Shown here: positions 5,641 to 61,893 of the stretch, in pieces
Numbering within the stretch: position 1 is the first letter of the stretch
How the letters are laid out: each line of letters opens with the position of its first letter
From: an uncultured Armatimonadia bacterium
GTDB taxonomy: Bacteria; Armatimonadota; Zipacnadia; CAVVLO01
Direction of reading: 5' to 3'
Length of the DNA: 64,000 nucleotides
NCBI GenBank assembly: GCA_963749155.1
Contig: CAVVLO010000001.1
Coordinates: 672,001-736,000, forward strand
Position numbers and translations under genes: made by a program
The notes under the pieces: generated by a model
Seen by the model: only the letters and a program-made list of their open reading frames with translations
What the model was told of the DNA's origin: nothing
Database searches by the model: none

Positions 5641-8418
5641 TCAAGTCCCTCCTCGGGAAGCTCTTTCAGCAACCGGATATAGTCCAGCTTCAGTTCAGCG
5701 CCAGGACGCCAGCTCGGATCGAACCTTAATCCCGTAATCGTACCCACCCAGCCAGGCAGAGCGCCCGTATCCAGCAGGTAGGTGTGATATTCACCATCGC
5801 GGGGTGCCTCTGCGTCAGCATATTGGCCCCCGAGAAGCCCGATGTAAGCGAGTTGCTGAAGAAAAGCTGCAATCCGTCAGGTTCTTCGCCCCCGCTCACT
5901 GCCATCCGGATGGCGACGTAGCGATACTCTGCAGCCGATATACTGATAGGCGGCCCCTGCAATACAGGGTCCTGACTGATAGCTCGCCCAACCAGCGCTC
6001 CATCGACCGGCTCCAGCTCCAAGCTTAGCCCTACTGTCCAGCCGTCCAGGCCTTCCTCGAACTCCCAGGCTGTCGCTCCGCCGAACTCTACCTCGCGCAG
6101 CGGCTGCCCCAGGTCAGCAGGAACCAAATCAGACGCCTTTGGCGCCTCTGGCGCTAGCGCCTGCTGGAAGGCATCCAGCATCGAAAAGCCCCACTCTCTG
6201 CCCGGCTCGCAGATTGACCCCTCGCCCCACTCATTCCAGGCCTCGGAGATTATCAGCTTGCCCGCCGGCCCCGTCACGCCGGTCCTCTCGACCAGGTCCA
6301 TCAGGGCCTGGAGATGTGCCTCCAGCGTCTCGGGCGTATACCCGACTCGCCACAGCGTGCTGTAGCCGTGCCAGGCGCGCGAATCCCACCCGCAGTTGGC
6401 GCTCGGGATATAGGGCAGCGCAGGCCCCTCTGGCGCCCTCGCGGAGCGCTCTATCAGGTCCTGATAGTCTTCGTTCATCTGAGTATAGGGTGCCCGCAGG
6501 TCGCCGCCAGTGTTCAGCCCGGCGCTGTTATAGTCCGAATCCGCATCGAACCCAAGCGCCTTCATCCGCTCGAGCCAGCTCTCCCGCGGCTGCCCGCAGG
6601 CGATAAGATACAATCCTCCCAGGCCTGCGTCACGGCACTTCTGACGCAGCTCCTCAAGGGCTTGCCCGAGTACCTTCTTCTCCGAGCGCTGTGGCAATCT
6701 CCATCGGCTGGAATATCCAGATTGCGGGCTTGCCGTCAATCCGCAGGTAGTTATCCCGCTTGAAGTAGTTCTCAATCCAGAAGTCGCACGCGGCCAGTAG
6801 ATCTTCCCGGCTGTGACTGCCAGGCCCGTTGTGGTTGGCCCAAAGCAGCGCGAACTTCATCTGGTCCTGATATCTGGCGCCAAAGAAAGCCTCGTGCAGC
6901 CCATGTTCGAGCGTCCGCTGGCCCTGATTCCAGTACCAGTCGAAAATCCAGAAAGTGATTCCCCGCTCACGCGCCCACTTTATCTGCCAGTCCATTATCC
7001 ACGGGTCGCCCTCGGCGTAATAGCCAAGTAGAGGCTTGCGGTAGTAGTCCTTGATGGATTGCCATCGGTCGGCACTCGCCCATCCTGGGAAATAATAGCA
7101 ACCGACCTCCCAGTCCGTCTTGAGCGGCACCGGCTGTGGCACATAGTCGTTGCGGGCAAGGGTTGGGGAAGTAGAGTGAAGGCAATTTCGGCGTTCGTAG
7201 TGAAACTGCCAGCCTCCGAGCTGACTTCGACCTCCAGGCGCTTTGGGCCTGGTGACTCTGCAACCACCTGCCAGCTCGCCTCAGCCCGGTTGGCGTATCC
7301 GATAACGCCCACCTCTCGCAAGGCTTGCTCGCCTTCGGCCAGCCTTACCCCCAGGCCTGGCTGCAAGAGAAGCCGGACCTGCCCCGCCGGCTCCGCGCCG
7401 AAGTTGGCCAGGTTACACACAACCTTTGCTGGCCGGCCGACCCGATTTACCCCGCTGTCCTTGCCGAAGTAGAGCACCCTGGGCGAGGCTTGTCCAGTTG
7501 GCTCGTTCACAAAGGCCAACCGCTTCAACAGGAGGGTGCTGCCCGCCCCACGCGGAGGCCGGACACCGACCGAGCGCAAATCGCCTCTAATCGTGATTGG
7601 CAGGCACGCCGTGTAGAGCCGCCCATCTGCAGGCCAGGGATAAAGTAGTGTCTTCCTGCCCTCGCCTGTCGAGGTCAGGTCCAGTTCTATTTCTGGCCCG
7701 GCCGTTGTCGCCGCCTCGATCAGCACATAGCTGCCAGTTTGTGTCTCCGGCTGAAGGCAGGCTGTTATCAGGGAAAGCTGCGCGTTCGAGGTTAGCTTCA
7801 GCCCCTCAGGTCCTTGCGAGCTGCTCTCGAGGCCTTCGGCGGCGGTCCACAGCGCGTGCTTCAGTCGGGTTCGTGAAATCCCAATCTGCACTGGGAGAGG
7901 CAGTTAAAGGAGTCTGCCGGCTCGACGAGGCGTACCCACTCCAGACCGAACTCATACCGCCCGGCGACCGGGTCCACCCGCAACTGAACTACCTGCGGCG
8001 CGCCATCCCACCAGGTCCAGGCGCCATACTCGTGCCACTGGCCATCGCCCTGGACCCGGATATTGATCGCTTCGGAAGGTTCAAAACCGCCAAAGGGGCC
8101 TTCGTGATCCGGTGCCCAAAAGACCTGCACATCGCCCACGACACCACTTTTCAGCCGAAGCTCGATCCGCTGCATCGGGCCGGTGGTGATGGGCTGCTCG
8201 GGCAATATCAGGAGGGGATCATCGTTCACCACGCGCCCAATAAGCGCGCCTGCCTCCAGGCGGACGTCCTGCAGCGATCCCGTGCCCCACTGCCCAAGCG
8301 CCCCGGGCGTCGAGAAGTCCCATTGCGCGACCGTGCGCCACTCCAGGGCCCGCGCCGGGTGTCCAAGGCCAAGAATTACAGCAAACACCAAACCAAACCA
8401 GATTGAAAAACTCTTCAT
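5637..8418 (-). CDS. Secreted multidomain GH99-like glycoside hydrolase, copy 2 (about 4 indels)
   Basis: ORFs 7861-8418, 6995-7891, 6654-7142 and 5726-6775 plus a tail ending LDYIRLLKELPEEGLE* at 5637 are collinear with copy 1 and carry the same motifs. Confidence 0.7.
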
Positions 8419-26733: not shown

Positions 26734-26810
26734 GGCGGCGTAGCTCAGATGGTCAGAGCGCGCGGTTCATACCCGCGTGGTCACTGGTTCAACTCCAGTC
26801 GCCGCTACCA
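26734..26810 (+). tRNA. tRNA-Met (CAT), elongator type
   Basis: GGCGGCG/CGCCGCT acceptor stem, TAGCTCAG D-arm, CGCGG-TTCATAC-CCGCG anticodon arm, GGTTCAACTCC T-arm, encoded CCA. Confidence 0.95.
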
Positions 26811-30025: not shown

Positions 30026-30160
30026 ATGGCAGCTCCTGCTTCGAGCAACCAGATGCCACTTGCGCGTTGGGGCTTGCTGCTGGGCCTCTCTCCTTGGCCT
30101 GGGGCTGCCCGAGGCCCTGCCTCTGCTGCGGAAACGTCTCGAAGGAGGCCACCGAGATGA
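30026..30160 (+). pseudogene. Possible remnant of the 5' end of a thioredoxin-like gene
   Basis: GGAGGTGCGAGATG...MPLARWGLLLGL resembles GGAGGTCGCGCGATG...LPLWRFSLLLAL at 33182, and both precede a pilin pair. Confidence 0.35.
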
Positions 30161-30903
30161 CCCTCAAACGCAGGCTTAACGCTTTCACCCTGGTAGAACT
30201 GCTGATCGTAATCGCCATCCTGGCGGTGTTGGCGGGCATACTTTTCACCGTCTTCGCCCCTGCGAAGGAGAAAGCCCGCCAGACGCAGTGCATCAGTAAT
30301 TTGAAGCAAGTGGGGATGGCAGTCCTGCTCTACAGACAAGACTACGATGGGCAGTGGCCTGCAAGCCTGCGGCACGTGTATGCTGGCTATGTCTCTTCTC
30401 ATAAGATGCTCGTGTGTCCTGACGACGGAACAAGCGAGGCGCAGCGCGCGGAACAAGAGGCAGCGACCCACGCGCCATACTGCAGCTATGACGCCAGCGA
30501 TGGGCTCCCGCGCATCTCGGGGGTCAGAGTAGCCAAGCTGCTGGCCCAGCAGGATGTATCCTGTGACGAGCTGGCCACGGCCATCCTCTACCACCGTCTA
30601 GCAGAACCGGTTGCCTTTGACTGCCTGTATCCGGCATGTGGCGCCCGGCGCACCCGACATCGTTGCGGCTCTGACAGACGACTTCCTGCGCGGTGATGAT
30701 CGGTCGGTACTATTGGTGCTGGAACAGGACGGCCGAGGGACTGCATGCGCATCATTCCAATCTCGGGCCAGAGCAGATGGTGTCTATAGCGTCAGCGTAC
30801 GCTGCCTGGAGTGACTGCACCTGAGGAGTGGCTAGCGATGCTGGCTGAGGTAAAGGATGCCTTCTAACATGCGCCGAAGCAGGGTTGCGAGGAGGAGGAG
30901 TGA
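30157..30903 (+). CDS. Prepilin-type N-terminal cleavage/methylation (DUF1559-like) protein P1; indels and an in-frame TAA near the end
   Basis: NA|FTLVELLIVIAILAVLAGILF; CPDD; CIRH...LEQDG in the shifted frame; ends KQGCEEEE* at 30903 like its paralogs. Confidence 0.75.
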
Positions 30904-30904
30904 G

Positions 30905-31644
30905 ATGACAAAACGGGGTTTCACCCTGGTAGAACTGCTGATTGTAATCGCCATCCTGGCGGTGCTGGCGGGCATACTTTTCACCGTCTTCGCCCCCGCG
31001 AAGGAGAAAGCTCGCCAGACCCATTGTATGAACAACCTCAAGCAGCTCGGGGCCGCCATCCTGCTCTACAAGACGGATTATGATGGGGGCTGGCCACGAG
31101 CGCTGCGGGAGACTTACCCGCAGTATGTATCGAGCGATGAGGTGTTCGTGTGCCCAGATGACGGCGCCACCTCGGATATGCGCGAGTCTTTCAGGGCCGT
31201 TATACGGCCTCTACCTGCTCATACGGCAGGTGCGGCGGTGATTCCTGGCCCTCTCTGTCCGGCGACGGCCTGCGGCGCGCCTTGGCCAGTCCAGTACGCG
31301 ACTGCAGACCATATCGCTGCCGAGATGATAGCTGCGATTACGCCTCGCGCTTCCCGCTGCTGATGTGCTACTACCACTTGCTGCCTGGGAGCGACCCCGA
31401 CAAGCACGAGTGGCACCAACTGCTGCATGATAACGATGTCCACTCCGTCATCCCCACGCTGAACCAGGACGGCAGTGTGCAGTTCATCACCACTCCGGGC
31501 AGGTGGGGCCGGGCCATCGTCCCAGCGCTCCACAACCACCTGGGACTAACTTCGGGGCAGTGGTTCGCCCTGCGAGACAAGTATATCCAGAAGGCCATCG
31601 ACCAGGGCTTGTGCGACAACGATGAGGGCGAGGAGGAGGACTAG
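30905..31644 (+). CDS. Prepilin-type protein P2 (indel(s) near 31200-31290)
   Basis: RG|FTLVELL; VFVCPDD; RFPLLMCYYHLLPGSD...TLNQDGSV; ends GLCDNDEGEEED. Confidence 0.8.
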
Positions 31645-31647
31645 TCT

Positions 31648-32367
31648 ATGCGTAATCCTTTGATGCGACTCTCCGGGCGGGTGAGGCGCTGGCTGATTAG
31701 AGGACTGCTCTCGGTGCTCGTGCTGGCGGCGCTCTCAGGGCTCGGTCTGCTTGGCTGGAAGCTCTTCTACCCCACCACTACAGCCGGCCATCAGGAGGCC
31801 TGCATAAGCAACCTGCACCAGCTCAGTATGGCCATCTTCGCCTATAAGCAGGACTGGGGCAAGTGGCCGTATGGCTTCAGAGCTTTCTATCCTGCTTACC
31901 AGCGCGACTCGTCAGTGCTGCTCTGCCCCGACGACCGCACCAGGCCTGAGCGACGCAAAGAGCTCGAGGCCACTTTTGGCGCCTACTCGAGCTATCTGAC
32001 CTATGGGGGAGACCTGCTTTACATTATCTCCCGGAGTGGGCGAGAGCTGTATTCGGAGTCTGACGCCGAGGGCTGGGCGTACTGGAAGACCTGCGAGCAG
32101 TATCGCAAGCAGATGCCCCTTTTCGTCTGTTATCACCATCTCCTTGGCTATCGCGTGGGGAGCGAGGAGGCGCTGCAAAAAGCTCTGGCGAAGGAGAAGG
32201 TCCATACGGTCTTCCTGAAGGTGAATCAGGACTCTCACGTCTCCCGCGTGAAGGTGCCTGAAGAGTGTCCTTACGCCGATGTCACGACTCCCTGGGGCGC
32301 CGCTGGCATCCCCGCCGACCAGTGGAAACAGACCTACCGGAGCTGGCTGGCGCAGGGGAGGGACTAG
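31648..32367 (+). CDS. Pilin-like protein P3 with non-canonical N-terminus (no FTLxE)
   Basis: Basic leader and TM segment, then CISNLHQLSMAIFAYKQD, LLCPDD, CYHHLLG...VNQDSH homologous to the P1-P7 heads. Confidence 0.75.
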   Translation: MRNPLMRLSGRVRRWLIRGLLSVLVLAALSGLGLLGWKLFYPTTTAGHQEACISNLHQLSMAIFAYKQDWGKWPYGFRAFYPAYQRDSSVLLCPDDRTRPERRKELEATFGAYSSYLTYGGDLLYIISRSGRELYSESDAEGWAYWKTCEQYRKQMPLFVCYHHLLGYRVGSEEALQKALAKEKVHTVFLKVNQDSHVSRVKVPEECPYADVTTPWGAAGIPADQWKQTYRSWLAQGRD

Positions 32368-32439: not shown

Positions 32440-33031
32440 ATGACGTCGCAGACCAGGAAGAAGACTTCGGTCCTGTTTTGGGTAGTTATCCTGCTGGGCC
32501 TGGTGGCCCTGGGGTTCTTCCTGAGGCCCCCGGCGGGCGGAGACAAACCCCCTGTCGCTTCTCAAACCGAAGCCCAGTCAGGAGCAGGGGGGCCTGGGGC
32601 GGTGACCGTTACCCTTATCAAGGACCCCGAGCCGGGTGAGGCCGCGCCCGCGCGCCTGGCAGAAGCCCTTGCCAAGGTGGCGCCCGAGGGCAAACCAGTA
32701 GTGCTCGTGATTATCGGAGACTGCACCGATTGCGCCCTCAAGTATCTAAGAGAGTGGAACAAGTTTGCCGCCGAACCCGGCGCGCCTGTCCATACTGGTG
32801 CTGACCCCAAGCCTTGAAGAGCAGCTTGCGGCGTTCAGGGCCAAGTATCCAGAGATTAAGTTGCCCTTGCTGAGAGAGCCGTATGACGAGTTGGACCTGG
32901 AATTGAATGTCCTCTTCCGACCGCGCGTCTATCTCTACGGGTCGGGGCTGCTCCTCGATTATGTGCAGGCCGATGGGATCGAACCTTTGAAGGCGCTGGA
33001 GCAAGTCCGGGCGCGCCTTACCGGCAGCTAA
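32440..33031 (+). CDS. Membrane-anchored thioredoxin-fold protein T1 (CTDC), indel near 32790
   Basis: N-terminal TM; GKPVVLVIIGDCTDC; LNVLFRPRVYLYG at the cis-Pro loop position. Joins ORFs 32440-32817 and 32765-33031. Confidence 0.65.
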
Positions 33032-33181
33032 GGAGCAGGCGGCAGTTGTTTAGCGCGCGGTGGCTTAATATACTGTTGCTCATTATTTATAATATTTAAC
33101 CTTGCAAAGCTAGTGACAAAGCTGGGCGGGGGGATAGACTGTTAAGTGAAGCAAAGTTCTGGCAGTGTTGGAGGTCGCGCG

Positions 33182-33812
33182 ATGACCCAAGCCCAGAGCC
33201 TTTGGAAAGAACGCCTCCCCCTGTGGCGATTCAGCCTGCTGCTCGCTCTGCTTATTGTTTCTCTCATCGTATTCGCGCGCGTCTCCAAGGCCACTCCAAC
33301 GAACCCCCTGTTCAAGCTTAAGCAATTCGTGCTGGAGCAGAAGCAGCAGCACCAGCAGAAGCTGGACCTCGAGCGCGACCCCACTCTCTGGCCAGCCAAG
33401 GCCCGAAGGCCTGACCCAGTGGCTCGCGCAGCAGGGGCTCGCGGGCAAGCCGCTGGCGCTGCTGATGATAGGCTCCTGCAGCGAGTGCGCCACAAGCTAT
33501 CTCAAGGCCTGGAGCGACTTCGCCGCGCTGCCCGGCGCGCCGGCGGTGGTGGTCTTCGCGGCCAGTGAAGAAGCCCAGGTCGAGGTTTTCCTCGCAAAAC
33601 ACCCTGAGCTCAACCTGAAGCTGAAGGTGGCGCCATATCCGGGGCTGGAGAAGGAGCTCAACGCCATCTTCCGGCCCCGCGCCTACTACTACGGGGCGGA
33701 TGGCGCGCTGGGGTGGCTTCAGGGCGACCACACCGACCCCTGGGCGACGCTTGCAGAACTGAAGGAACGGCTCGGACTGGCCGGGGAGGGCAAGGCAGAT
33801 GCGCAAGACTAG
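33182..33812 (+). CDS. Membrane-anchored thioredoxin-fold protein T2 (CSEC), indel near 33395
   Basis: N-terminal TM; GKPLALLMIGSCSEC; LNAIFRPRAYYYG; paralog of T1; overlaps the P4 start. Confidence 0.65.
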
Positions 33813-34506
33813 AGGTTTCACCCTTATCGAGTTGCTGATCGTGATGGCTATCCTGACCCTGCTGGCGGGAATCCTCTTCACCGTCTTCGCCGGCGCGAAG
33901 GAGAAAGCCCGCCAGACCCACTGTATGAATAACCTCAAGCAGCTCGGGGCAGCCATCCTGCTGTATAAGCAGGATTATGATGGTGGCTGGCCAGAGTTCG
34001 CGTGGCAGACCTATCCGCAGTATGTTAGCGACAAGGCGCTGTTCGTCTGCCCAGATGACGGCACAGCATCCAGTATCCGTAAGTCCTTCGAGGCCCGACA
34101 CGGCGCCTATGAATCGTATGCGAGAGGCGGGGGAGACCATCTCCCCATATTGTCTGGATTGTTTCTCCGCCAAGCCGCGATCCCGGAGACCGATTGCGGT
34201 TCGCGGGCGATGGCTTTGGCCAGCTGGCACTACCACGATCGATACCCGGTGCTCAGGTGTTTCAATCATCTGTTCCCAGGTAGTGACTGTGACTCCCGCG
34301 CGTTCGACAAGCTGCGAGAGACGCAGGAGGTGCGCGGCGTGATACCTACGCTGAAACAGGATGGCAGTATTGTGATGGAAATCGTGCCTTCTCGTTACGG
34401 ATCGAACCCCTTGGCGGGAAGTGTTGGTGCCCACATAACTGGCAAGGAATGGATGGATGTGCTGAGAAGCTACAAGGAGCAGCTTGGGTGTGAAGAGGAG
34501 GATTGA
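33799..34506 (+). CDS. Prepilin-type protein P4 (head type A)
   Basis: Intact 235-aa ORF, RG|FTLIELL, ends KEQLGCEEED. Confidence 0.88.
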   Translation: MRKTRGFTLIELLIVMAILTLLAGILFTVFAGAKEKARQTHCMNNLKQLGAAILLYKQDYDGGWPEFAWQTYPQYVSDKALFVCPDDGTASSIRKSFEARHGAYESYARGGGDHLPILSGLFLRQAAIPETDCGSRAMALASWHYHDRYPVLRCFNHLFPGSDCDSRAFDKLRETQEVRGVIPTLKQDGSIVMEIVPSRYGSNPLAGSVGAHITGKEWMDVLRSYKEQLGCEEED

Positions 34507-34507
34507 G

Positions 34508-35242
34508 ATGGCAAAGCGAGGTTTCACCCTTATTGAGCTGCTGATTGTGATGGCCATCCTGACCCTGCTGGCGGGAATCCTGTTCACCGTCTTCGCCGGC
34601 GCGAAGGAGAAAGCCCGCCAGACCCACTGTATGAACAACCTCAAGCAGCTCGGGGCAGCGATCCTGCTCTATAAGCAGGACTACGATGGGGGGTGGCCGC
34701 AGTCCAGGCACTGCTCGCTGTTCCCACACTATGTTCAGGACCGAGCAGTGTTCGTCTGCCCAGACGACGCAACCGACTCGAGAACACGCGACGGCGCTAG
34801 AGGCGCGCTGACGGCGCTGTACTGCAGCTATACGCGGGGTAGAGGCGACTACCTTCTGCGGTTGTCTGGATGGGAGTATGAGCGGGTGACAGCCAGTGCG
34901 AACTGTGAGCTCAAGTTCGCCATGCTGTCAACCCAACCCTTCACCTCCCGATTCCCGATGTTGGTTTGTCGCTGGCATCTCCTGCCCGGATCGGATGTGC
35001 TCCGTGCTGAGTTCACGCAGCAGATAGAGACGGCCAGAATTCAAGCACCAATACTGAAGCTGAACCAGGATGGCAGCGTAGTCCGGTGGATGGTACCCAC
35101 ACAAACCGGGGGCTACGAAAACGCTGACACCACTCTGGGCGTCATAGCCTATAGCCGAGAGGAGGCCGCCACTGCTCGCAGGAGGGCAAGAGAGCTCCTG
35201 CGGGCCCAGGGCGGCTGCGACGACTTTCTGAACAGGAGGTGA
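34508..35242 (+). CDS. Prepilin-type protein P5 (head type B)
   Basis: MAKRG|FTLIELL; GAGGAGG RBS; ends GGCDDFLNRR. Confidence 0.88.
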   Translation: MAKRGFTLIELLIVMAILTLLAGILFTVFAGAKEKARQTHCMNNLKQLGAAILLYKQDYDGGWPQSRHCSLFPHYVQDRAVFVCPDDATDSRTRDGARGALTALYCSYTRGRGDYLLRLSGWEYERVTASANCELKFAMLSTQPFTSRFPMLVCRWHLLPGSDVLRAEFTQQIETARIQAPILKLNQDGSVVRWMVPTQTGGYENADTTLGVIAYSREEAATARRRARELLRAQGGCDDFLNRR

Positions 35243-35249
35243 GAAGACT

Positions 35250-35590
35250 ATGAGAAGGCTCGATGTCTGCAACCGTCGTGTATGTAGTGCTGGTGGCAGT
35301 GGCGCTCGGCGTATTTGGTCTTGCCATCATTGCGTCGGCCGACGACTGCATACACTACTACATGTGTGGTCCAACGTACAACACATGCTGCGTTAAAGGG
35401 GTGCACCTACACGTCTTTCGGCTCGTATGACGTGGTGAGCTGCTACGAGATGATCGGGATAGGTGGTATAACTATCGCTTGCTACAAGAAAGTGGCGGAT
35501 GCGATCAATCCCTCGTGCCCGACGCCGCCACACCTGTGCACGGACGGGAAGTATGAGCAAGTGACAGGGCATTGCTCGGAGGACTGGTAG
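35250..35590 (+). CDS. Cys-rich secreted miniprotein C1 (10 Cys; extra G near 35400)
   Basis: GGAGGTGAGA RBS. Reconstructed ...VAVALGVFGLAIIASA|DDCIHYYMCGPTYNTCCVKG-CTYTSFGSYDVVSCYEMIGIGGITIACYKKVADAINPSCPTPPHLCTDGKYEQVTGHCSEDW*. Start is 35250 (needs a further indel) or 35263. Confidence 0.7.
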
Positions 35591-35611
35591 CGACACGGAC
35601 CAGAATAACAA

Positions 35612-35680
35612 GAGCAGGGGGACGGTGGGTCCCCTGCTCCACCTCTCTCCGGCCAGGCGCGCTACGAGGAGGCGCAAATG
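35612..35680. repeat. Cassette-boundary repeat copy 1 (GC hairpin plus RBS spacer)
   Basis: GAGCAGGGGGAC-GGTGG-GTCCCCTGCTC-CACCTCTCTCCGGCCAG...GCGCTACGAGGAGGCGCAAATG. Confidence 0.85.
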
Positions 35681-36387
35681 CGCAAAGACGAGGTTTCACC
35701 CTTATCGAGCTGCTGATCGTGATGGCCATCCTGACCCTGCTGGCGGGCATCCTGTTCACCGTCTTCGCCGGCGCGAAGGAGAAAGCCCGCCAGACCCACT
35801 GTATGAACAACCTCAAGCAGCTTGGGGCAGCGATCCTGCTCTATAAGCAGGACTACGATGGGGGGTGGCCTAAGGATCTGGCCCGGATATACCCGCATTA
35901 TGCGAACAGCTCTGCAGTGTTCGTATGCCCTGACGCGGTTGCGACTGCTGAGGAGCGAGAAGCTGCCCACCGCAGGAAGGGACTCTTCGTGTCGTATGAG
36001 CGCCTTGGGGGCTCCGCCTTGGGTGCGCTGTCCGGCGAGCAACTTGACCGGGTTCTTCGAACTCCTCAGTCGAGCTGTCTGGACAAGGTCGTCGCCTATG
36101 TGACGAACGATGTCGCCAGCAGGCTCCCGGTCCTGTGGTGCGTGGATCACCTGCTCCCTGGCGAGAACTGCATGCGCACAGGCTTCAGGGAGCGCGTGCT
36201 CGAGAACAACGTGCGGGGGGTGATGCCGACACTTGAGCAGGATGGGAGCGTGATAGTAGTGGCAGTGCCGACGCGGTACGATCCCAACCCCTTCGCGTTC
36301 AACGCGATGGCTAGAATGACAGGGCACGAGTGGCAGCGCTTAGTCGACTCGTGGAAAAAGCAGCTTGGTTGTGAGGACGAGCAGTAA
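35678..36387 (+). CDS. Prepilin-type protein P6 (head type A; indel in the first codons)
   Basis: ATG 35678 follows GAGGAGG as in P7; RG|FTLIELL in ORF 35572-36387; ends KKQLGCEDEQ. Confidence 0.82.
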
Positions 36388-36411
36388 GCTTGCGAATTGG
36401 AGGTGAGACAA

Positions 36412-36760
36412 GTGAGAAGACTGTCTGTTGCAACAATGCTGTGGTTCGTCCTTCTGGCGCTGGTGTTGGGCGTGCTCGCGCAGCTTGTGCTTGCGGACGA
36501 CTGCACAGGTACCCACTGGCTCTGTGGCACCTGGTACGACACCTGTTGCGCGCGTGGGTGCAGCGTCGAGTATTGGGATCCCATCGATTTCCAGATCTCG
36601 TGCCACGAGGTAGATATCAATGTGGGTTACGTCACGTACACGGGCAAGTGCGTCGAGTATCGGGACACAGCAAATCAATACACCTGCCCTACGCAGGAGC
36701 CTCCGTGCAACCGCACACACTGGTGGTTCTGGCCCATGGAATCCTGCCTAGGCAACCTAG
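36412..36760 (+). CDS. Cys-rich secreted miniprotein C2 (10 Cys)
   Basis: GGAGGTGAGA RBS, GTG start; MRRLSVATMLWFVLLALVLGVLAQLVLA|DDCTGTHWLCGTWYDTCCARGCSVEYWDPIDFQISCHEVDINVGYVTYTGKCVEYRDTANQYTCPTQEPPCNRTHWWFWPMESCLGN. As sequenced it reads on to 36843; the likely true stop is the out-of-frame TAG at 36758-36760. Confidence 0.75.
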
Positions 36761-36832
36761 GCAGGGGGACGGTAGGTCCCCCTGCTCCACCCCTCTCCCG
36801 GCCAGACCGCGCGCTACGAGGAGGCGCAAATG
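36761..36832. repeat. Cassette-boundary repeat copy 2
   Basis: GCAGGGGGAC-GGTAG-GTCCCCCTGCTCCACCCCTCTCCCGGCCAGACCGCGCGCTACGAGGAGGCGCAAATG. Confidence 0.85.
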
Positions 36833-37564
36833 CGCAAGACTAGAGCTTTCACCCTTATCGAGCTGCTGATCGTGATGGCCATCCTGACCCTGCTGGCAGG
36901 AATCCTGTTCACCGTCTTCGCCGGCGCGAAGGAGAAAGCCCGCCAGACCCACTGTATGAACAACCTCAAGCAGCTCGGGGCGGCGATACTGCTCTACAAG
37001 CAGGATTATGACGGGGGGTGGCCGCCGGAGGCACGCGCTCTCTTCCCTCATTATGTAGCTGATAAACAGGTCTTCGTGTGTCCAGACGACTGCACCCCCC
37101 AGAGAGAGCGCCGACGGATAGACGAGACATACACGCCCTATTGCAGCTATGACCGGGGTACTGGCGACTACCTGCCGACTTTATCGGGGTGGGCCCTGGA
37201 GCAGGCAATGGCTTCCTTCAACTGCGACCTGAAGGCCAAAGCCCTGGCCGAGCGAGCCTTCCTGGCCCGGCTGCCGGTACTTGTCTGTCTCTGGCACCTG
37301 CTGCCTGGCGCAGATGTGCCTGCTGTGGATTTCAACCGACGCCTGGTTGAGGCGGAGATACAGGCTCCAGCTTTGGTTCTCCGCCAGGATGGGAGTGTGG
37401 ATCGCCTGATGGTTCCATCCGAGACAGGAGGGTACCTCGACGGCATCCGCGGTACCGGTGTGCATGGCTACACGCTGGCAGAATGGATCCCAGCACTTAA
37501 ACGAGCCAGAGAGCAACTGCGCGCGTCGGGTCACTGTACAGATGAAGAAGAAGAGGGGAGGTGA
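36830..37564 (+). CDS. Prepilin-type protein P7 (head type B)
   Basis: Intact 244-aa ORF, MRKTRA|FTLIELL, ends GHCTDEEEEGR. Confidence 0.88.
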   Translation: MRKTRAFTLIELLIVMAILTLLAGILFTVFAGAKEKARQTHCMNNLKQLGAAILLYKQDYDGGWPPEARALFPHYVADKQVFVCPDDCTPQRERRRIDETYTPYCSYDRGTGDYLPTLSGWALEQAMASFNCDLKAKALAERAFLARLPVLVCLWHLLPGADVPAVDFNRRLVEAEIQAPALVLRQDGSVDRLMVPSETGGYLDGIRGTGVHGYTLAEWIPALKRAREQLRASGHCTDEEEEGR

Positions 37565-37572
37565 GAAAGAAG

Positions 37573-37665
37573 GTGAGAGAGTTGAAGAAACTCGCTTGCC
37601 CCGACGGCGAGCCGCCCTGCACTCTCACAAAGTGGGAGTTCGAGATCTGGGGAGAGTGCGACTGA
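37573..37665 (+). pseudogene. Internally deleted third Cys-rich miniprotein C3
   Basis: GGAGGTGAGA RBS then VRELKKL-ACPDGEPPCTLTKWEFEIWGECD*, which matches the last three Cys of C2 (CPTQEPPCNRTHWWFWPMESC). Confidence 0.65.
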
Positions 37666-37679
37666 GCCTAAAAAAACAA

Positions 37680-37720
37680 GAGCAGGGGGACGGTAGGTCC
37701 CCCCTGCTCCACCCCTCTCC
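37680..37720. repeat. Cassette-boundary repeat copy 3
   Basis: GAGCAGGGGGAC-GGTAG-GTCCCCCCTGCTC-CACCCCTCTCC, preceded by an A-run. Confidence 0.85.
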
Positions 37721-37987: not shown

Positions 37988-39762
37988 ATGAGAAGTTTGA
38001 TGCTCATTGAGTTGGCCATACTGGTCGCATATATTCTCGCGTTCACCACCACTCTTGGGCTTGCTGCTTCCGAGGGCAACGAACCCGGCAGACCCTCGGC
38101 GCCCTTGCAGGCTAGTGCAACGGAAAATTCCGCCTCTTTCATCAAGGTCACCCAGGCCGACGGAGTATTCGTCAAGCAGCCGCTGGTTCGATCCAGTCAC
38201 TATGACGAGAAGCTAGCCAGCCAAAATACAGCACGCATCAAGGCCATCATGAGCTCCCCGGCCATCAGCCAATATTGCCGAATCTACTTTCCGGCAGGGG
38301 CCTATTATTTCAACGGCGCCGCAACTGGCTGGAACGCCAGCATCCAGTCTACTGCCAAGTACCAATCTTTCACTGGCGATGGGATCAATGCTACTCGCCT
38401 TATTCAGAAAAGCCTGGATGTCCCAGCCACAATCAAGCTCAGCCATAGTAACTGCACAATCCAGGACTTATCAATTATGTCTTCTGATTACCAGCAGGAT
38501 TTCAATGAGGATTGGGACAAGCACCCGCATCAGACGGCAATCGCACTGGAGTCTTCAGCCTTTACGCATACCGATCCGCAGATATTGAATGTCAACATCA
38601 ATACCAGCGGAAACAACATTATCATCGATGGATTCTTCCGTCCCTTCAAGACAGGCATAAGGATCACCGGCCCGTGGTTCAATGTCTATGCGCACACAAT
38701 GTTTATGTTGTATGTCCACAATGCTATCTATGTAAACCAGGGCAATATGTGCGGGGGCCGGCAAAGTTCCTGGATATCAACGCGTACGCCACCTCTCCTC
38801 ATACGGAGAAGCCAGTTACCCAGACCTGGAACACGTTCTTCAAGAGTGAAGGGCATTTCATGGAGCAGGTCGAGCTTATCCACTGCACTTATATAGGCTC
38901 TCAGTTCATCTGCATGGATGGCGCCAAGCTCTCCCCGGGTGACGATAACTCTACCAAGACGGCGACTACCCCGGTTTACAACATGATCGTGGATCATTGC
39001 TACATAAACTCACTCTGGCTACCGTCACCCTCGGAGGAGGCGAAGTGGTCAGGTATTTACTTGAATCTGCCGCCAAGGCCAGGAGGTATTGAGCCGGGAT
39101 TTGGCACGGAGCTTTACAGCAGGCAGGTAGTCTTCACCAACAATACCTGTATGGGCAAGACCCCGCGCAACGGAGCGTTTTTCTACATCGAGGGCAACGT
39201 TAGAGATGTAACACTTCAAGGTAATCATATTGCCTCGGGAGGAGGAGATCGCTGCATCTATATTCGGGCCACCCGCCCGTTCCTGGATACAGATGTAGCG
39301 GTGCGTGATATCAAGATCTCCGATAACTACTTCGAGGATTTCCAGGCGCCGATTACGATCGGAGGAAACAAGCAAGATCTATCACGAACCAGTAACAACG
39401 CAGGCCAGGATGATGATCCTTACTGGGTCGAAGGCGTGACGATTACCGGTAACAGGTCTTACTATTTGCCGGTCACAGAGAAGTATCAACTTACGGGTAT
39501 TCTCTTGAACCGCGCGCGGCGTGTCCTTGTGCAGGCCAACACACTCGCCAGGACCAGTGGATCGTCGGTCATCCTGAACGAGTGCGAAGACATCATAATG
39601 CAGGACAATATGTTCGCTGGTCTTGCTGATATGGGCGAGAACGGGATAGTACTGCAGAAATGCAAGACGGCTATTTTGATCGGAAACATAACGCGCGGTT
39701 TTCGGCATGGGATTTTACAGCAGGGCTCCGAGAACGTGACGCTCGCAAACAATTTGGAGTAG
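37988..39762 (+). CDS. Secreted right-handed parallel beta-helix (pectin lyase-like) protein, indel near 38755
   Basis: Signal peptide; IYFPAGAY, GDGINATRL; repeated (I/V)TGN/QGN/QDN turns. Joins ORFs 37988-38896 and 38512-39762. Confidence 0.75.
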
Positions 39763-45919: not shown

Positions 45920-46270
45920 CTGCTGACGCCGGCTTATGGCCTACAGCAGGCACGCGACCTCGCTCCAGAACCACCGATAACAGGGCGCGAAAAACTACCG
46001 GTCAAAAACCTCAGGACGACCAAGGCATAGAATACCAGATTAGGTTTCTGAATGCCAGCTATATATTGGTCAAAAGGAAAGAGGAGAGCCCCCTCGCTCT
46101 CCTCTTTCAAGCCTCACCCAGGGAGGCCGGCACAAATCAGGTCTGGTCTAATACCTTCTGCTTACTTAATATACCTCCTGCAGCCCTGGATATAACCTTG
46201 GAGCCGGGACAGGAATTGGGCAAGCGGGTATAGAATCCAGCTGGTAGTTGATTGCTTGCGGGGGGCCGGT

Positions 46271-47867
46271 ATGCGCGCGCCAGTGATTGTATTGTTGTTG
46301 GTTAGTCTGGTTGGCACTCTGGCAAGAGCTGAAGGAAGCTTTGCCAATCCTCTCGGGGTGCCAGTCGCCGACCCTTTTGTGCTTCAGCTTGAAGGTCAAT
46401 ATTATCTGTATGGCACCTGGGAACCCAACCCCGCGGCCGGCGTGCCGGTTTTTACCTCGAGTGACCTGGTGCACTGGCGCTGGCAAGGGTTTGTCCTTCA
46501 ACCAGGCAACAAAACCTGGGCACAGACCCACTTTTGGGGCCCCGAAGTAATCCAGCGCGAGGGGCATTTTCTGTTGGTCTGCTCCGCCTCACCCCAAAAA
46601 GAAGGCACCACGCCTTTGAGGATGGGGCTTGTGGTAGCTGAAAGCGACTCACCGCTTGGCCCCTTCACAGAGGTCTGTGCCCCACTGCTGGCGCCCGACG
46701 CGCCCGACGAAGCCATCGATGGGCATATATTCCGGGATGAAGACGGCAGCCTTTGGCTCTACTTCACTCTGGTCACACAAGGGAGAAACGAGATCCGGGT
46801 CGCGCCTCTTGCGCCTGACCTGCTCTCGCTTGCAGGTGAGTCTTCCCTCTGCACCCGCCCCGAGCAGCCCTGGGAGAGCCATCCCTGGCAGGGTCATGTG
46901 GTCAACGAGGGGGCCTTCCTGACAAAGCACACCGGCGCCTATTACCTTATATATACAGCGAACCATTTTCTTGATCCGGACTATTGCCTTGGGTATGCAA
47001 CTGCTCCTTCTCCGACCGGCCCGTGGACGAAAGCGGCGGAGAACCCGATCCTCGCCCGCACCGGCGCCGTTGCCGGACCGGGCAGCGGTTCCTTGATCAA
47101 CTCTCCCGATGGGACTGAACTCTTGGCTGATTTATCACACCCATAACAGCCTGGCCCAGGTGGCGCCGCGTCAGCTCGCGATGGACCGCGTCCACTTCGA
47201 ACCTGTCACATCGGGCCCTGACCGGCTGGTGGTGGAAGGCCCAACTCGCTCGCCCCGGCCGCTGCCAGGCGGCGCTCCAGAGTGGCCAGAGGCCACTTCG
47301 GATGAGTTTGAGGGCGCAGCCCTTGACCGGAGTCAGTGGTTCCTCCTCAACGAGCGACCGGAGGCTTTCTGGGTGGCCGAGGGCAGTCTTTGGATACGTC
47401 CGACTAACGGCGACATGTGGACCTGGCGCGACGATTTCGGCAACCTTTTTTTGCAGGAGGCCCCACCTGAGCGCTGCGAGGTGACCGCCCGTTTGAGGTT
47501 CGGGCCTCAGATGAATTACGAGCAGGCCTATATCCTCTTCTATCAGGACCACGACAACTGGGCGCGTCTCTCAACACTCTGGGCGGACGGGCCCAAGCTC
47601 GCTTTTGGCTGGGAAATCGACGGCCAGTATCAGCAGGTCATCGTGCCAAACCAGCTCGGGCGCGCCCTCTACCTCAAACTCTGTCGCAAGGGAGACGTCT
47701 ACACCGCCCTTGTTAGTAGTGATAAGAAGGACTGGCTGCAGGTTGGAGAACCGACTACCGTCCTACTTTATTGCCCAAAAGTCGGCCTGGGCGCTTTGGC
47801 GACGACCGATGCCAGTTCTCCCTCGCTGGCCCAGTTTGAGAGCTTCCAGTTAAGTCCCTTGCCCTGA
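46271..47867 (+). CDS. GH43 glycoside hydrolase with C-terminal ConA-like domain, indel near 47120
   Basis: ADPFV, WGPEV, AIDGHIFRDEDG, VNEGA, NPIL; second part SDEFEG... Confidence 0.88.
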
Positions 47868-47932
47868 ACCTGCAGGGAGTAGCGTCCTCCTGTTAAATAC
47901 TTCCCCGACACAAAAAGGACAAGGTGAATCCA

Positions 47933-49181
47933 ATGGCAAACGGTTTCTTCAAAAAACCTGTAACCCGCAAGCAGGCGGTCAAACTGGCTGGTGCTGGTAT
48001 CGCGGCGCTAGCGCTTGGCCCAGAGGCTGTATTCGGAGGCGAAAACAATATGGACGATTCTCGTAAAATACGTATCGGGGTGGTTGGCGGAGGTTTCGGT
48101 ACCGATTTCCAGTGGTCCGAGCACCCAGGCTGCATCGTCGAAGCGGTCAGTGACCTGCTGCCGGTGCGCAGGCAGATACTGCAAGATGTGTATAAATGTC
48201 CCAAAGCTTACAATTCGCTGGAGGAACTCATCCTCGATCCCAAAGTAGAGGCCGTTGCGGTCTTCACCGGCGCGCCGGATCACGTGCGCCATGCGGTCGC
48301 GGCGATGCGCCACGGCAAACACGTTATCTCGGCCGTGCCCGCTGCCATCACGCTGGAGCAGGCTGAAGAGCTGCTGGCTGTGAAAGAAGAAACCGGCCTG
48401 ACTTATATGATGGCCGAGACCAGTTATTACCAGCAGGCGGCCATCTCGGCGCGCAAGTTCTGGAATGAGGGGCAGCTTTGGCAACCTGGTCTTCTGCCGG
48501 GCAATGTATCATCACCCAGGCCTCGAGACGCTGTGGTTCAACGCCGATGGTTCGCCCACCTGGCGCCATAGTTATCCGCCGATGCTGTACCCGACTCATA
48601 GCACGGCCTTTCTCGTCGGAATCACCGGCGACCGGCTGACCGAGGTCTCGTGTATCGGTTGGGGCGATGGCGCGGACATAATGAAAAACAATCAATACCA
48701 TAATCCCTTCTGGAGCGAGGCGGCTTTCTTCGAGACCGACCGCGGGGGCAGCTTCGAGATGGAAATCTTCTGGAAGGCCGCCGTCGGCGGTTGCGAGCGC
48801 GCCGAGTGGTATGGCGATCAGATGAGCTTCTATATGGCCCATCCCAACGGCCTTGGCCCCATCATCCGCCGCGCCAGCGAGCAGGTCGAGAAAGACGATG
48901 CCGGCTTCGAGCGCACTTTGGCGACCTATGAGGCCTATCAGCAGCCTCTCTGGTGGCAGACCGATATGCTGCCCGAGCCGCTTCGCCATGACAGCGGCCA
49001 CGATGGCTCGCATACCTTCCTGACCCACGAGTTCGTCTCGGCGCTGCTGGAAGAGCGCGCCCCCACGGTGGACATCTACGAGGCGCTTTCCTACACCGTG
49101 CCTGGCATCGTCGCGCACGAGTCGGCAATGAAACAGGGCGAGCATCTGCGCATCCCCGTCTACCACAGACCCAAGGCATAA
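47933..49181 (+). CDS. Gfo/Idh/MocA oxidoreductase with Tat-like leader, indel near 48470
   Basis: IGVVGGGFG, HGKHVISAVPA, YMMAETSYY, PPMLYPTH, SGHDGSH. Confidence 0.85.
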
Positions 49182-55964: not shown

Positions 55965-56217
55965 CCCCTTTGTGGGCGGTGCGGCCAAAAGGGGCTACAA
56001 AGGCGTAAAACGGCGTAACAGGGAGGTAACCAACGGTTGTAAGGATGGGAGATCCACTTGGAAACAACCCCCCCTTGCGTGAATACCTGCGCTACAATAG
56101 TATTGGTAAGGTGGAGAGGAGAGGGCCTGTTGCACTTTGTTAAACGAATATTAAGTGCATTGGGCGCTCGAGCGCGCTTGTTGCTTAGCGACTGCGGGGC
56201 GCGTTGAGGCGGCTTAT

Positions 56218-58618
56218 ATGTCCGAAGTACTTACACAACCTGCTGTCGAGATACTGCTGCTGAGTCTTATCACGGTCTTGGCCCTGTGGGCCATGCATGT
56301 CCAGGGATTACGCAAACAGATAGCCGATAAACGTAATGAGATTGCGCGGCAAGAAGACCAGGTTGTTCAGCTCCAGGCCGAACGCGCCGCCATGCGCGGT
56401 GATGTGCTACTTGCAGATGAAGCCCTGAGACACACCAGTTGCGCTCTGGTGGCATGCGACAAGAAGGGGCGCCTCCTGCTTGCCAATGAGGCAGCCGAAG
56501 CGCTGCTTCACCTCGATGTACAATCTACCAACCTGCTGGCGCCCGAGTGGCTCAACCATTTCCGAAGCGAACTGGTTTCCGATGTTGCCGGGCAGGAAGC
56601 TTTGCTTCCTCATATGCAGGTCCTGAACGGCAATGGCCAGGCAGCTTCTTCTTCCGCGCTGGTACAAGACAAGGCCCGTTCCGGCTGGATAGAAATATAT
56701 GCCTGCCCTCCGCGCAGAGGCTGCCAGGTGCCTGCGAGTGTCTTCTTGCAGGCCCATGATGTCACCGAGCAAATCCAGCGCCAGCTCGAGCTGGGTAAAG
56801 AGATTGCCCGATGGCAAGAGCTTATCAACGATCTTCCCGCCCTGGTATGGATCTCGGATGCCGATTTTGGGCTGCTGATGGCCAGCAAAGAATGGGAAAG
56901 TGTGCTTGGCCAAAAGCCCGAAGCAATGCTTGGCCAGGCCTGGCTCGAGCTGGTGCATCCGGTAGATTTACCCGACCTTAAACAGCAATGGCGCGAAGCG
57001 GCGCGTACCCGGACCAGCCTCGATCTCCAACTCAGGCTTCGCAATGCTGAAGGAGACTGGCGCTGGTTCAGGATGACAGGGCACCCTCAAGGGGAGCCAG
57101 GCAAAGGATTTGCGGGTTTTGTGGGGTGTTGTCTGGGTTCTGATGTTGCAGGTCAGGGCGGAGACGAACTCGGGATGTACCGGATTATCGCCGATGGGCT
57201 TGGCGAAGCGATGCTTATCATTGATGAGGATGGCTTTGTACTGCATGCCAACCGGATGGCCGAGCGGCTTTATGGATGCAGCCGCGAGCAGCTTATTGGG
57301 ACCAAGATCCAGGAACTGCGGGTCGAAAATACAGGGCCAAGCCTGTCCGATATCGCCACAACCGCGGGGGCTGAAGGATTGCTTTACGAAGTGCGCCACA
57401 AGCGCCTGAATGGAGCAGTCTTTACCGCCGAAGTACGCAGCAATGTAATAGAGCTGGGTGGCAAGCAGTTCTTCATTGCCTTTGTGAGAGATGTAGGGCC
57501 CAGGCGCGCCGCCCAGGAAGAGCTACGCGAGGAGCGAGAGCGCTTCCATGCCGCCCTCCAGTCTGCCGGGCAATCCTACCTCTCTGCTGGAAAACCACCA
57601 GCTTCGATTCGTAAACCAGGCTATGACTGAGTGCTTTGGGCCATATAAGGGCCAGCCTTGTTATAGTTATCTGCTGGGCTCTGCCAAACCCTGCGCTGGT
57701 TGCAGGACTGATAATCCTGCCTGCGAGCAAGCCTCTGCCAACGGAGTATGGGCTTCTCCCGATCAAGCTCGCTGGTATAAGGCAAGCGTTACTCGCTTGC
57801 GCGTTTCGGCAGGCACTCCGGAGTTTCTCCTCGTGTTGCATGATGTCACAAAGGCACGTGAGGACGAAGAGGCCTGGAGACTTACGAATGAAGCCCTCGA
57901 GGCAAGAGTCAACGAGCGGACAGTGCAGCTTCAAGAGGCCAACAAGGAGCTTGAAAGCTTCGCTTATTCGGTATCTCACGATCTGCGCGCTCCGTTGCGC
58001 ACTCTGAATGGCTTTTCGAAGATACTGCTGCGCCAGCCAGATGAGAGCCTGAGCGACCAAACGGTCCATTATCTGGAGCTTATCAACAAGAGCGCCCTGC
58101 GGATGGACCAGCTTGTGTCGGGCCTGCTCGAGTATTCCAGGACAGGCCGGGCTGCGATGCATCCTGATTGGGTAGCGCCTGATGGCATAGTGCAGGAATT
58201 GATGGAAGAACTGGGGATGCAATATCCAACAGCCACAATATTGGCCGAAGCTCTGCCCCGTTGCTGGGCTGACCGTCAGTTGCTGCGGCAAGTACTGCAA
58301 AACCTGCTCGGTAACGCTTTGAAGTTTTCCTCCAAGCGTTCTGATGCGGTCATACAGGTCGGTGCCAAGCGGAACGGCGAAGAAGTTATCTATTTTGTCA
58401 GCGACAATGGAGAAGGCTTCGACCCCACCTATTCTGACCGGCTCTTCCGGGTATTCCAGCGTCTGCACACTGAAGAGGACTACGAGGGCACAGGGATAGG
58501 ACTTGCCATAGTTGGAAGCATCATCACCAGACATGGTGGTCGAGTCTGGGCAGAATCCAAACCGAACGAAGGCGCTACTTTCTTCTTCACCCTGCCAGGG
58601 GGAGAACATAATGGCTGA
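56218..58618 (+). CDS. Multi-PAS sensor histidine kinase (Cph1-like kinase core), indel near 57580
   Basis: One TM, several PAS domains (WLELVHPVD...WRWF), SVSHDLRAPLR, FQRLH, GIGLAIV. Confidence 0.88.
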
Positions 58619-61227: not shown

Positions 61228-61314
61228 GGAATTACGTTTCAGGTTAGAAGGAATCTGACCAACCAGTTATAACGAACGGTCTCGCGCTCCGTATGCGCGA
61301 AAAGGGTGAGTTCT

Positions 61315-61893
61315 ATGCGTAGCGTCACTCTCGTAATAATGTTGTCACTCCTGAGCCTGGCACTCTTTACGGGCCTCGCGTCAGCCAATCCATGGACCGT
61401 CAACTACATTGGCGATACCACGTGGCTTGGCGATAACGAGTGGGATCTGCAGTGGCTTGTAGCCTGGTCCGCAAGCAATGAACCACCAGAAACCGTAAGC
61501 TTTGTCTGGTTCGATGTGACGGATGATCTGCAAAGTGCCGATGTAACAAGCTGGACCGACACTGCTTATGCAGACTTCATCACTTCGAGCGGGGTCAACT
61601 ACTATATTGGCGTAGCTGATGACCCTTACGGTGTGACCGAGGGCGACAAGGTTTTCCTGTGGTTGATAAGCGACCCGGGCAACCAGTTCCTGCTCCTGAG
61701 CGCCGTTGTGGATAACGACCCGGCAATCTACTCGTTAGATAATGTCACCGGCGGCATTGGGGGTACTGAGCTTGATCCTGGTGATACGTACAACGAGTTC
61801 ACTGACCTCGGTCTGACCCCCGAGCCAGGCAGCATGGCTGTGCTGCTCTTCGGTCTGGGCGCCATGGGCCTTATCCGTCGCCGCAAGAAGTAA
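61315..61893 (+). CDS. PEP-CTERM sorting domain protein 2
   Basis: Signal peptide; TPEPGSMAVLLFGLGAMGLIRRRKK; paralog of protein 1. Confidence 0.88.
   Translation: MRSVTLVIMLSLLSLALFTGLASANPWTVNYIGDTTWLGDNEWDLQWLVAWSASNEPPETVSFVWFDVTDDLQSADVTSWTDTAYADFITSSGVNYYIGVADDPYGVTEGDKVFLWLISDPGNQFLLLSAVVDNDPAIYSLDNVTGGIGGTELDPGDTYNEFTDLGLTPEPGSMAVLLFGLGAMGLIRRRKK

Follow-up and report, generated by a model that had tools for sequence, protein, structure and literature searches.

Two genes for small exported proteins with ten cysteines, C1 and C2, lie between positions 35250 and 36760 of a 64-kb stretch of contig CAVVLO010000001.1 from an uncultured Armatimonadota bacterium, and the remnant of a third copy, C3, follows downstream; the whole 64,000-nucleotide stretch is called the window below. 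Each copy takes second place in a repeated cassette that consists of a DUF1559-type pilin-like gene, the miniprotein gene and a GC-rich hairpin, and the interval that holds C1 and C2 also holds a complete pilin-like gene (35680-36387). We find that C1, C2 and the C3 remnant almost certainly belong to a genuine family of exported proteins with a common cysteine framework, and that the pilin-cassette context is the best functional lead. The genes and elements of the cassettes are as follows.

33799..34506, + strand: pilinA, DUF1559-type pilin-like protein of 235 amino acids, with an 83.6% identical ortholog (P0018)
34508..35242, + strand: pilinB, pilin-like protein of 244 amino acids; its stop codon lies inside the C1 Shine-Dalgarno sequence
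35250..35590, + strand: C1, ten-cysteine miniprotein gene; stop codon TAG at 35588-35590
35398..35401, + strand: four consecutive G, which break C1 into two frames; with three G the gene would be in the frame of all relatives
35614..35639, + strand: GC-rich hairpin after C1, G5 arm and C4 arm
35678..36387, + strand: pilinC, pilin-like protein of the 235-amino-acid type; C2 begins 25 nucleotides past its stop
36412..36747, + strand: C2, ten-cysteine miniprotein gene, from the GTG start to the codon of the tenth cysteine (Cys10)
36748..36843, + strand: read-through tail of C2, 31 codons, low model confidence
36761..36785, + strand: GC-rich hairpin after C2, G5 arm and C5 arm
36830..37564, + strand: pilinD, pilin-like protein of 244 amino acids; its stop codon lies inside the C3 Shine-Dalgarno sequence
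37573..37665, + strand: C3, remnant of the third copy, 30 codons, with an internal deletion
37680..37709, + strand: GC-rich hairpin after C3, G5 arm and C6 arm, z = -4.5

In full, the order along the locus is CxxC protein, CxxC protein, pilinA, pilinB, C1, hairpin, pilinC, C2, hairpin, pilinD, C3, hairpin and beta-helix protein. The Shine-Dalgarno sequence of C1, AGGAGGTGA (35234-35242), overlaps the pilinB stop, a corresponding overlap is found for C3 at 37559-37566, and C2 has its 25-nucleotide gap. Judged from the sequence, this spacing of pilin-like and miniprotein genes is typical of translational coupling. The four pilin-like neighbours score 32.7-36.7 bits against N_methyl (cut-off 21.2) and 29.2-31.1 bits against DUF1559, PF07596 (cut-off 23.3), the latter over profile positions 3 to ~35 of 268 only. 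Neither C1 nor C2 gave an N_methyl or TIGR02532 match, and their leader is of the Sec type with an AxA|DDC site, so the miniprotein itself is no pilin.

The hairpin core, GCAGGGGGACGGTRGGTCCCC, occurs in exactly three copies in the 64 kb, each of them just past a C gene, where none is expected by chance, and the hairpins have stabilities of -31 to -41 kcal/mol. They match no Rfam family at the gathering threshold. In a scan for intrinsic terminators no hairpin was followed by a T-run on the + strand, and we therefore do not call them canonical terminators; the third scores as a terminator on the - strand only. The hairpin is better conserved than the surrounding genes. It may serve in transcript processing or stability, or mark a recombination boundary of the cassette. 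There is also indirect evidence that the order C gene, hairpin, pilin recurs on an unrelated contig of 1519 nucleotides, which encodes P0019, a pilin of ~50% identity. The spurious N-terminal extension of P0019 contains RGTVGPPAPPLS, which is the C2-tail hairpin in translation, and the residues ahead of it, VVRDLGHLRL, resemble an out-of-frame 3' end of a C gene.

The cysteine framework and its relatives

C1 and C2 have in common the motifs CG-x2-Y-x-TCC-x2-GC, SC-x-E and CPT-x4-C, and in a six-frame scan of the 64 kb the combined motif was found at the C1 and C2 sites only. The signal peptide of C1 is opened by ATG 35263 and reads MSATVVYVVLVAVALGVFGLAIIASA|DDC, with the cleavage site ...IIASA|DDC, and the mature part has 82 amino acids with the spacing C-5-C-6-CC-3-C-12-C-12-C-11-C-6-C-11-C. 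With the G-run taken as one step, the C1 precursor (P0008) has 108 amino acids and ten cysteines. The Shine-Dalgarno sequence of C2, GGAGGTGA, lies at 36399-36406, and GTG 36412 follows five bases beyond; a signal peptide of 28 amino acids ending in ...LVLA|DDC is followed by 84 amino acids up to Cys10 (36745-36747), with the spacing C-6-C-6-CC-3-C-13-C-15-C-11-C-6-C-12-C. The n-h-c signal and the AxA|DDC site were in each case read directly from the sequence. C3 keeps its Shine-Dalgarno sequence, an MRxL opening and its last 22 residues (CPDGEPPCTLTKWEFEIWGECD), and an internal loss of ~250 nucleotides has removed the signal peptide and Cys1-7. Over their mature parts, C1 and C2 are identical at 24 of 78 aligned residues, or at 14 of 68 if the shared cysteines are left out. 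An earlier note on this DNA had spoken of almost no identity between the cysteines, which is mildly overstated.

A word-indexed search across 5.8 billion clusters brought up three relatives besides the proteins themselves, each of 112 amino acids (55-64% identity, E = 4.5e-37 to 6e-30). Searching 1,835,955,588 representatives with a HMMER profile gave seven proteins at E <= 1e-3 (best 1.8e-28), five of them at E <= 1e-10; six have 109-119 amino acids and the seventh, P0011, is truncated at 77. Altogether there are ~10 distinct family sequences of 109-119 amino acids, apart from P0011 and the 143-amino-acid open reading frame formed by C2 with its read-through. At E = 4.5e-37 to 6e-30, and with the framework kept in every one of them, the independent relatives put the similarity beyond chance, and the possibility that C1 and C2 are spurious open reading frames is excluded by the same independent homologs. 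In a ten-row alignment of C1, C2, P0005 and P0006 (from the word search) and six further relatives from the profile search, the cysteine framework is kept throughout. One member, P0007, has a garbled middle and nine cysteines, probably from a frameshift in its own source. Thus the claim of the earlier note that the locus encodes two exported ten-cysteine proteins with A|DDC signals and a shared scaffold agrees both with the motif scan and with the independent relatives.

The family is tiny and restricted to the lineage of its host, uncultured Armatimonadota. Pattern scans of 185,579 species, one genome each, gave 51 and 20 pattern stretches and no confirmed relatives, and a tblastn search of plasmids and phages with P0005 gave no match. 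The leaders are of the Sec, signal-peptidase-I type and end in A|D[DEQ]C, with the exception of P0013 (AEDPC). A lipoprotein was considered and rejected, as there is no lipobox ahead of the first cysteine. The mature domain has 80-88 amino acids, is acidic and carries ten conserved cysteines; with the garbled P0007 left out, net charge runs from -3 to -9, and aromatic residues, among them many Trp and Tyr, make up 11-20%.

Two types of framework can be told apart. Type I members (C1, C2, P0005, P0006, P0009 and P0011) have Cys6 in the SC-x-E position, and type II members (P0010, P0012, P0013 and P0014) lack it and have CC at the Cys7 position instead; P0010 and P0014 have 11 cysteines. Since the number of cysteines is even in seven of the nine full-length, ungarbled sequences, and the proteins are exported and keep their framework, five disulfides are plausible. 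The relocation of Cys6 to a place beside Cys7 in four relatives looks like a disulfide partner that has moved. The same observations bear on the possibility that this is a metal-binding (Cu, Zn, Fe) or redox protein with the cysteines as ligands or thiols. Ten cysteines in ~84 residues and the two CxxC proteins encoded upstream would suit such a protein. However, export by Sec leads into an oxidising compartment, the miniprotein has no CxxC or CxxxC clusters (one CC pair apart), and both the mostly even cysteine number and the relocation of Cys6 look more like disulfides; we regard a metal or redox function as highly improbable.

The earlier note had called the family unrecognised, and we likewise found nothing usable in Pfam, NCBIfam, PADLOC, PHROGs, the PDB (by sequence or fold), BFVD or the ESM Atlas. 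C1 and C2 matched nothing in Pfam and NCBIfam at E <= 1, and nine members searched against Pfam at E <= 10 gave only four unrelated single-member matches, with no toxin, knottin, defensin, carbohydrate-binding module (CBM) or lectin family among them. PADLOC, searched with three family members and four neighbouring proteins, and PHROGs, searched with five family members, returned nothing. A profile search of PDB sequences gave nothing significant (best match a haemagglutinin signal region, E = 0.033); its sole toxin-like match was a spider inhibitor cystine knot toxin, 5i1x, at E = 1.2, and the N-terminal 37 residues searched alone had no PDB match at E <= 10. The ESM Atlas held no usable match, and the available text of the literature that we searched contained no description of such a family.

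With the nine-row family alignment as input, AlphaFold2 modelled the mature domain at a mean predicted local distance difference test score (pLDDT) of 89.5 and a predicted template modelling score of 0.73; the full precursor reached a pLDDT of 79.9. In the model, residues 4-6 and 12-15 form short strands and residues 23-43, 46-63 and 72-80 long ones, with a helical turn at the CC pair, so that a short cysteine-dense N-terminal segment appears pinned to a long three-stranded antiparallel sheet. Foldseek searches with both models found no PDB match at E <= 1e-3 and none in BFVD; the best PDB scores were E = 1.6-2.2 with a template modelling score of at most 0.35, and no knottin was among them. 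Judged against the PDB and BFVD, the modelled 84-residue ten-cysteine scaffold is thus a candidate new fold. The model also bears on the hypervariable loops proposed in the earlier note, which we do not find: the variable positions lie in the three predicted beta-strands, where the mean frequency of the top residue is 0.36-0.38, compared to 0.50 in the CP..PPC loop and 0.62 in the N-terminal 22 residues, the most conserved part. Length varies at the tip of the long hairpin of the model.

Broken reading frames and neighbouring genes

The extra G reported in the earlier note as the reason why C1 is not visible as one frame is present in the sequence, and three G in its place restores the frame of the relatives. 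That note had also reckoned with a frameshifted C1 lacking intact homologs; such a homolog exists in P0009, an intact C1-type protein of 113 amino acids that is 75% identical to the read-through C1. Across the G-run C1 reads ...TCCVKGCTY..., in agreement with ...TCCSKGCTY... in P0009, and P0009 confirms both this frame and an MRKL... start. Because ATG 35250, which lies beside the Shine-Dalgarno sequence and opens with MRRL as C2 and the relatives do, is in a different frame from ATG 35263, a second one-base indel near 35262 is probable. Programmed frameshifting at AAA-GGG-G was considered and dropped, as many frameshifts occur elsewhere in the window and AAA-GGG-G is no known slippery motif.

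Similar defects affect the neighbouring copies. The ATG of pilinC (35678) lies in another frame than its body (35680-36387), which places an indel at the very start of the gene. C2 has no stop after Cys10 and stays open to 36843, and its tail runs through a CCTAGG palindrome and the hairpin and over the start of pilinD; in all eight full-length relatives (the truncated P0011 set aside) the stop lies 0-4 residues past Cys10. In the +1 frame after the Cys10 codon there is a TAG at 36749 and another 9 nucleotides on. The palindrome TGCCTAGG-CAA-CCTAGGCA (36745-36765, + strand) stands directly after the last cysteine codon of C2, contains both TAG codons and is absent after C1 and C3, and a one-base difference within 36745-36765 would end C2 at Cys10, as its relative P0010 does. 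The read-through comes either from a lost stop codon or from an indel artefact.

Frame breaks are also found far from the cassettes. The phosphofructokinase gene (1903-2920, - strand) is split, with PFK profile positions 1-81 in 2276-2920, positions 89-276 in 1903-2610 and a linker in the third frame at ~2590-2645. A WbsX glycosyltransferase (5729-7280, - strand) has profile positions 48-171 and 173-349 in different frames, a GH43 glycoside hydrolase (46256-47867, + strand) is in another frame than its C-terminal domain, a GFO/IDH oxidoreductase (47924-49181, + strand) is split, and in a histidine kinase (56155-58618, + strand) the PAS sensor part and the kinase core are in different frames. 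The break in phosphofructokinase, a core glycolytic gene, indicates indel errors in the assembly, and these many other frameshifts together with the intact ortholog P0009 make assembly error likely for C1 as well. We take the breaks in C1 to be about twice as likely an assembly artefact as real.

Three observations weigh against an artefact. The apparent frameshifts are not uniformly spread, with ~9 of ~13 (counted by inspection) falling in 30-40 kb; long housekeeping genes elsewhere are intact (arginyl-tRNA synthetase (ArgRS), a P-type ATPase, CLC and prismane); and all three copies deviate from the canonical form, C1 by its frameshifts, C2 by its lost stop and C3 by its deletion. Because all three deviate, the locus may be decaying here, in which case the lesions in C1 (frameshifts), C2 (lost stop), C3 (deletion) and the start of pilinC would all be real; this reading is compatible with a family that is functional elsewhere. 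The ~250-nucleotide loss inside C3 is indeed unlike a sequencing-type error. However, phosphofructokinase, the WbsX glycosyltransferase, GH43 and the histidine kinase are split too, and the mature domain of C2 is wholly intact. Furthermore, the C1 G-run and the hairpin copies, which pair a G5 arm with C4, C5 and C6, differ by homopolymer length, as consensus errors do, and the clustering could come from the greater difficulty of polishing paralogous repeats. Decay of the locus, at least in part, is in our view a live but less likely alternative.

Upstream of pilinA, two further genes belong to the same run:

32440..33028, + strand: CxxC (CTDC) paralog, in two frames; heads the pilin/miniprotein operon
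33146..33812, + strand: membrane-anchored CxxC (CSEC) protein, in two frames; its end overlaps the start of pilinA

Both CxxC proteins carry a downstream R-P motif, as judged by eye, and a promoter-like site lies at 33065-33093. Seven pilin-like genes stand within 30.1-37.6 kb, three of them upstream of the CxxC proteins (30157-32364, + strand); those at 30169-30811 and 30905-31641 are frameshifted, and the third (31645-32364) has an atypical N-terminus and no N_methyl match. The window contains no gene for an assembly ATPase, platform or secretin. Directly downstream of the cassettes is a frame-split, pectate-lyase-like beta-helix protein (37988-39762, + strand), and glycoside hydrolases of the GH38, GH129, GH43 and GH14/42-like types are plentiful in the window. 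The relatives of ArgRS and of the pilin-like proteins that carry a taxon name belong to the Armatimonadota (Capsulimonadaceae, Chthonomonadales, Armatimonas). The sole Rfam match in the window at the gathering threshold is one tRNA (26734-26807, + strand), and a protein of 195 amino acids (61306-61893, + strand) carries a PEP-CTERM sorting motif at its end, a sign of an exosortase system somewhere in the genome.

Possible roles beside the pilin-like proteins

The functions listed in the earlier note (adhesin, recognition ligand, toxin or immunity factor) span too broad a range, and the note did not consider the pilin cassettes. We tentatively propose, at a probability of about 0.4, that the miniprotein serves outside the cytoplasm as a binding module stabilised by disulfides, together with its pilin-like partner. 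The miniprotein would be co-translated in fixed proportion with this partner and exported by Sec, and outside the cytoplasm it would be oxidised to five disulfides, possibly aided by the two upstream CxxC membrane proteins. The resulting rigid binding module may then dock on the pilin-like protein, or be displayed or exported along with it. Its fold would be held by the N-terminal cystine core and the CP..PPC loop, and the surface of the sheet, which varies between paralogs, would set what is bound. The ligand may, at a reasonable guess, be a glycan: the surface is acidic and rich in aromatic residues, and glycoside hydrolases and a beta-helix protein are encoded nearby.

The nearest parallel to a non-pilin exported protein inside a pilin-like cluster, presumably co-expressed with it, is offered by PilY1 and the minor pilins of type IVa pili and by the GspK-I-J tip with its type II secretion substrates. 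There are differences as well: an 84-amino-acid cysteine-rich protein is unlike PilY1 or known secretion substrates, and the pilins here are of the DUF1559 type.

Several points weigh against the proposal. The partnership is read from gene order and coupling in a single window and, indirectly, from one further contig; no miniprotein gene follows pilinA; and the pairing of pilin subtype and miniprotein clade is inconsistent, with the 244-amino-acid type ahead of C1 and C3 and the 235-amino-acid type ahead of C2. The CxxC proteins match no Pfam family and no PDB entry, with no thioredoxin, redoxin or DsbA profile even at E <= 10, and it is possible from their motifs that they are thiol-disulfide oxidoreductases. 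The carbohydrate ligand, too, is a guess, with no CBM or lectin family among the Pfam matches.

Sugar binding could also be independent of the pilin-like proteins, the miniprotein being a free lectin- or CBM-like module. Small cysteine-rich binders of chitin and cellulose exist, such as hevein/CBM18 and CBM1, and hevein/CBM18 resembles the miniprotein in being small, disulfide-rich, aromatic-rich and exported, with a CC-x-x-G-C-like core. The abundance of Trp and Tyr (aromatics 11-20%), the all-beta sheet of the model, the glycoside hydrolases of the window and the adjoining beta-helix protein would fit such a module. In contrast, no CBM or lectin match was obtained by sequence or fold, which includes the chitin-binding type-1 Pfam family and any hevein-like fold, and the aromatic positions are unconserved over the family, except for the W/Y before DTCC. 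We consider a free lectin very unlikely.

A different account takes the miniprotein to be a free secreted effector, a toxin, antimicrobial or protease inhibitor that diversifies in the manner of conotoxins or knottins, with the pilin-like genes as incidental neighbours. The evidence for this lies in part in how the sequences vary. Three comparisons within the C2 clade each show better conservation of the signal peptide than of the mature domain (26/28 vs 39/83, 23/28 vs 46/83 and 23/28 vs 47/83, or 82-93% vs 47-57%; Fisher p = 1.2e-5, 0.013 and 0.023), a pattern also seen in conotoxin superfamilies, with their conserved signal and variable mature domain. However, the miniprotein has no propeptide, and in the C1 clade the pattern is reversed, with 16/26 (62%) identical residues in the signal and 60/78 (77%) in the mature part of the C1/P0009 pair. 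Gene conversion at the 5' end would explain the C2-clade pattern equally well; it is unusual and suggestive, and fits either diversifying selection or 5'-end conversion of tandem copies.

Overall, divergence in the family is no greater than that of ArgRS. Because the best non-self ArgRS match is only 68% identical (the next ~51%) and the lineage is thinly sampled, identities of 55-75% between miniprotein relatives are not unusual. Furthermore, the last 22 residues of C3 are identical to the C-terminus of P0006 (22/22), while the pilinA ortholog P0018 is 83.6% identical; P0006, encoded on a 1.6-Mb contig, and P0018 are taken to share one contig. Of the diversifying pressure invoked by the earlier note, the signal-over-mature conservation of the C2 clade is suggestive, and the reversal in C1/P0009 and the identity of C3 and P0006 speak against it.

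The second line of evidence for a free effector is the spacing of the cysteines. Knottins, of ~30-40 amino acids and six cysteines, follow the consensus C-x(3-7)-C-x(3-6)-CC-x(1-4)-C-x(4-13)-C. The first six cysteines of type I members, C-x6-C-x6-CC-x3-C-xn-C, fit this inhibitor cystine knot spacing with a last gap of 12-13 residues (C-6-C-6-CC-3-C-13-C), and the spider toxin 5i1x appeared in the PDB profile search at E = 1.2. The two groups are also alike in being exported and disulfide-stabilised, with variable segments set in a conserved cysteine framework. The miniprotein differs in having ~84 amino acids, ten cysteines and a long three-stranded sheet, in lacking a profile, PDB sequence or fold match to knottins, and in being bacterial and coupled to a pilin-like gene, and four of its relatives lack Cys6.

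Other features tell against an effector of this kind. A net charge of -3 to -9 sets the miniprotein apart from membrane-active peptides, which are cationic, Pfam gave no match to a toxin, knottin or defensin family, and neither the PDB search with the N-terminal 37 residues nor Foldseek brought up a knottin; no immunity-like small gene is adjacent. Pilin-like paralogs are very numerous in the phylum, as in Fimbriimonas ginsengisoli (PMC4072686), which would allow a chance neighbourhood. The overlap of Shine-Dalgarno sequence and stop for C1 and C3 and the 25-nucleotide gap for C2 are nevertheless hard to call incidental. A free effector thus seems to us unlikely, and we prefer to read the miniprotein as a binding module acting together with its pilin-like partner.

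In its most extended form, the miniprotein would be an unseen five-disulfide fold that serves as specificity cap or ligand of DUF1559 pilin-like proteins, and the tandem cassettes would be a modular surface-recognition repertoire that diversifies by duplication, deletion and recombination at the hairpins; we think this quite unlikely as a whole. DUF1559-type proteins are among the largest paralog families of the Planctomycetota, with 68 copies of unknown function in Planctopirus limnophila (available text of PMC10632474), and Fimbriimonas ginsengisoli, of the Armatimonadota, has 79 PulG-like genes (likewise PMC4072686). If the cap or ligand reading were true, it would provide a first functional handle on these DUF1559/PulG-like expansions of the Armatimonadota and Planctomycetota, and if the cassette reading is true, the miniprotein would be a concrete, testable partner for DUF1559-type pilin-like proteins. 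The ten-cysteine bacterial scaffold may, in addition, prove useful as a stable binding scaffold.

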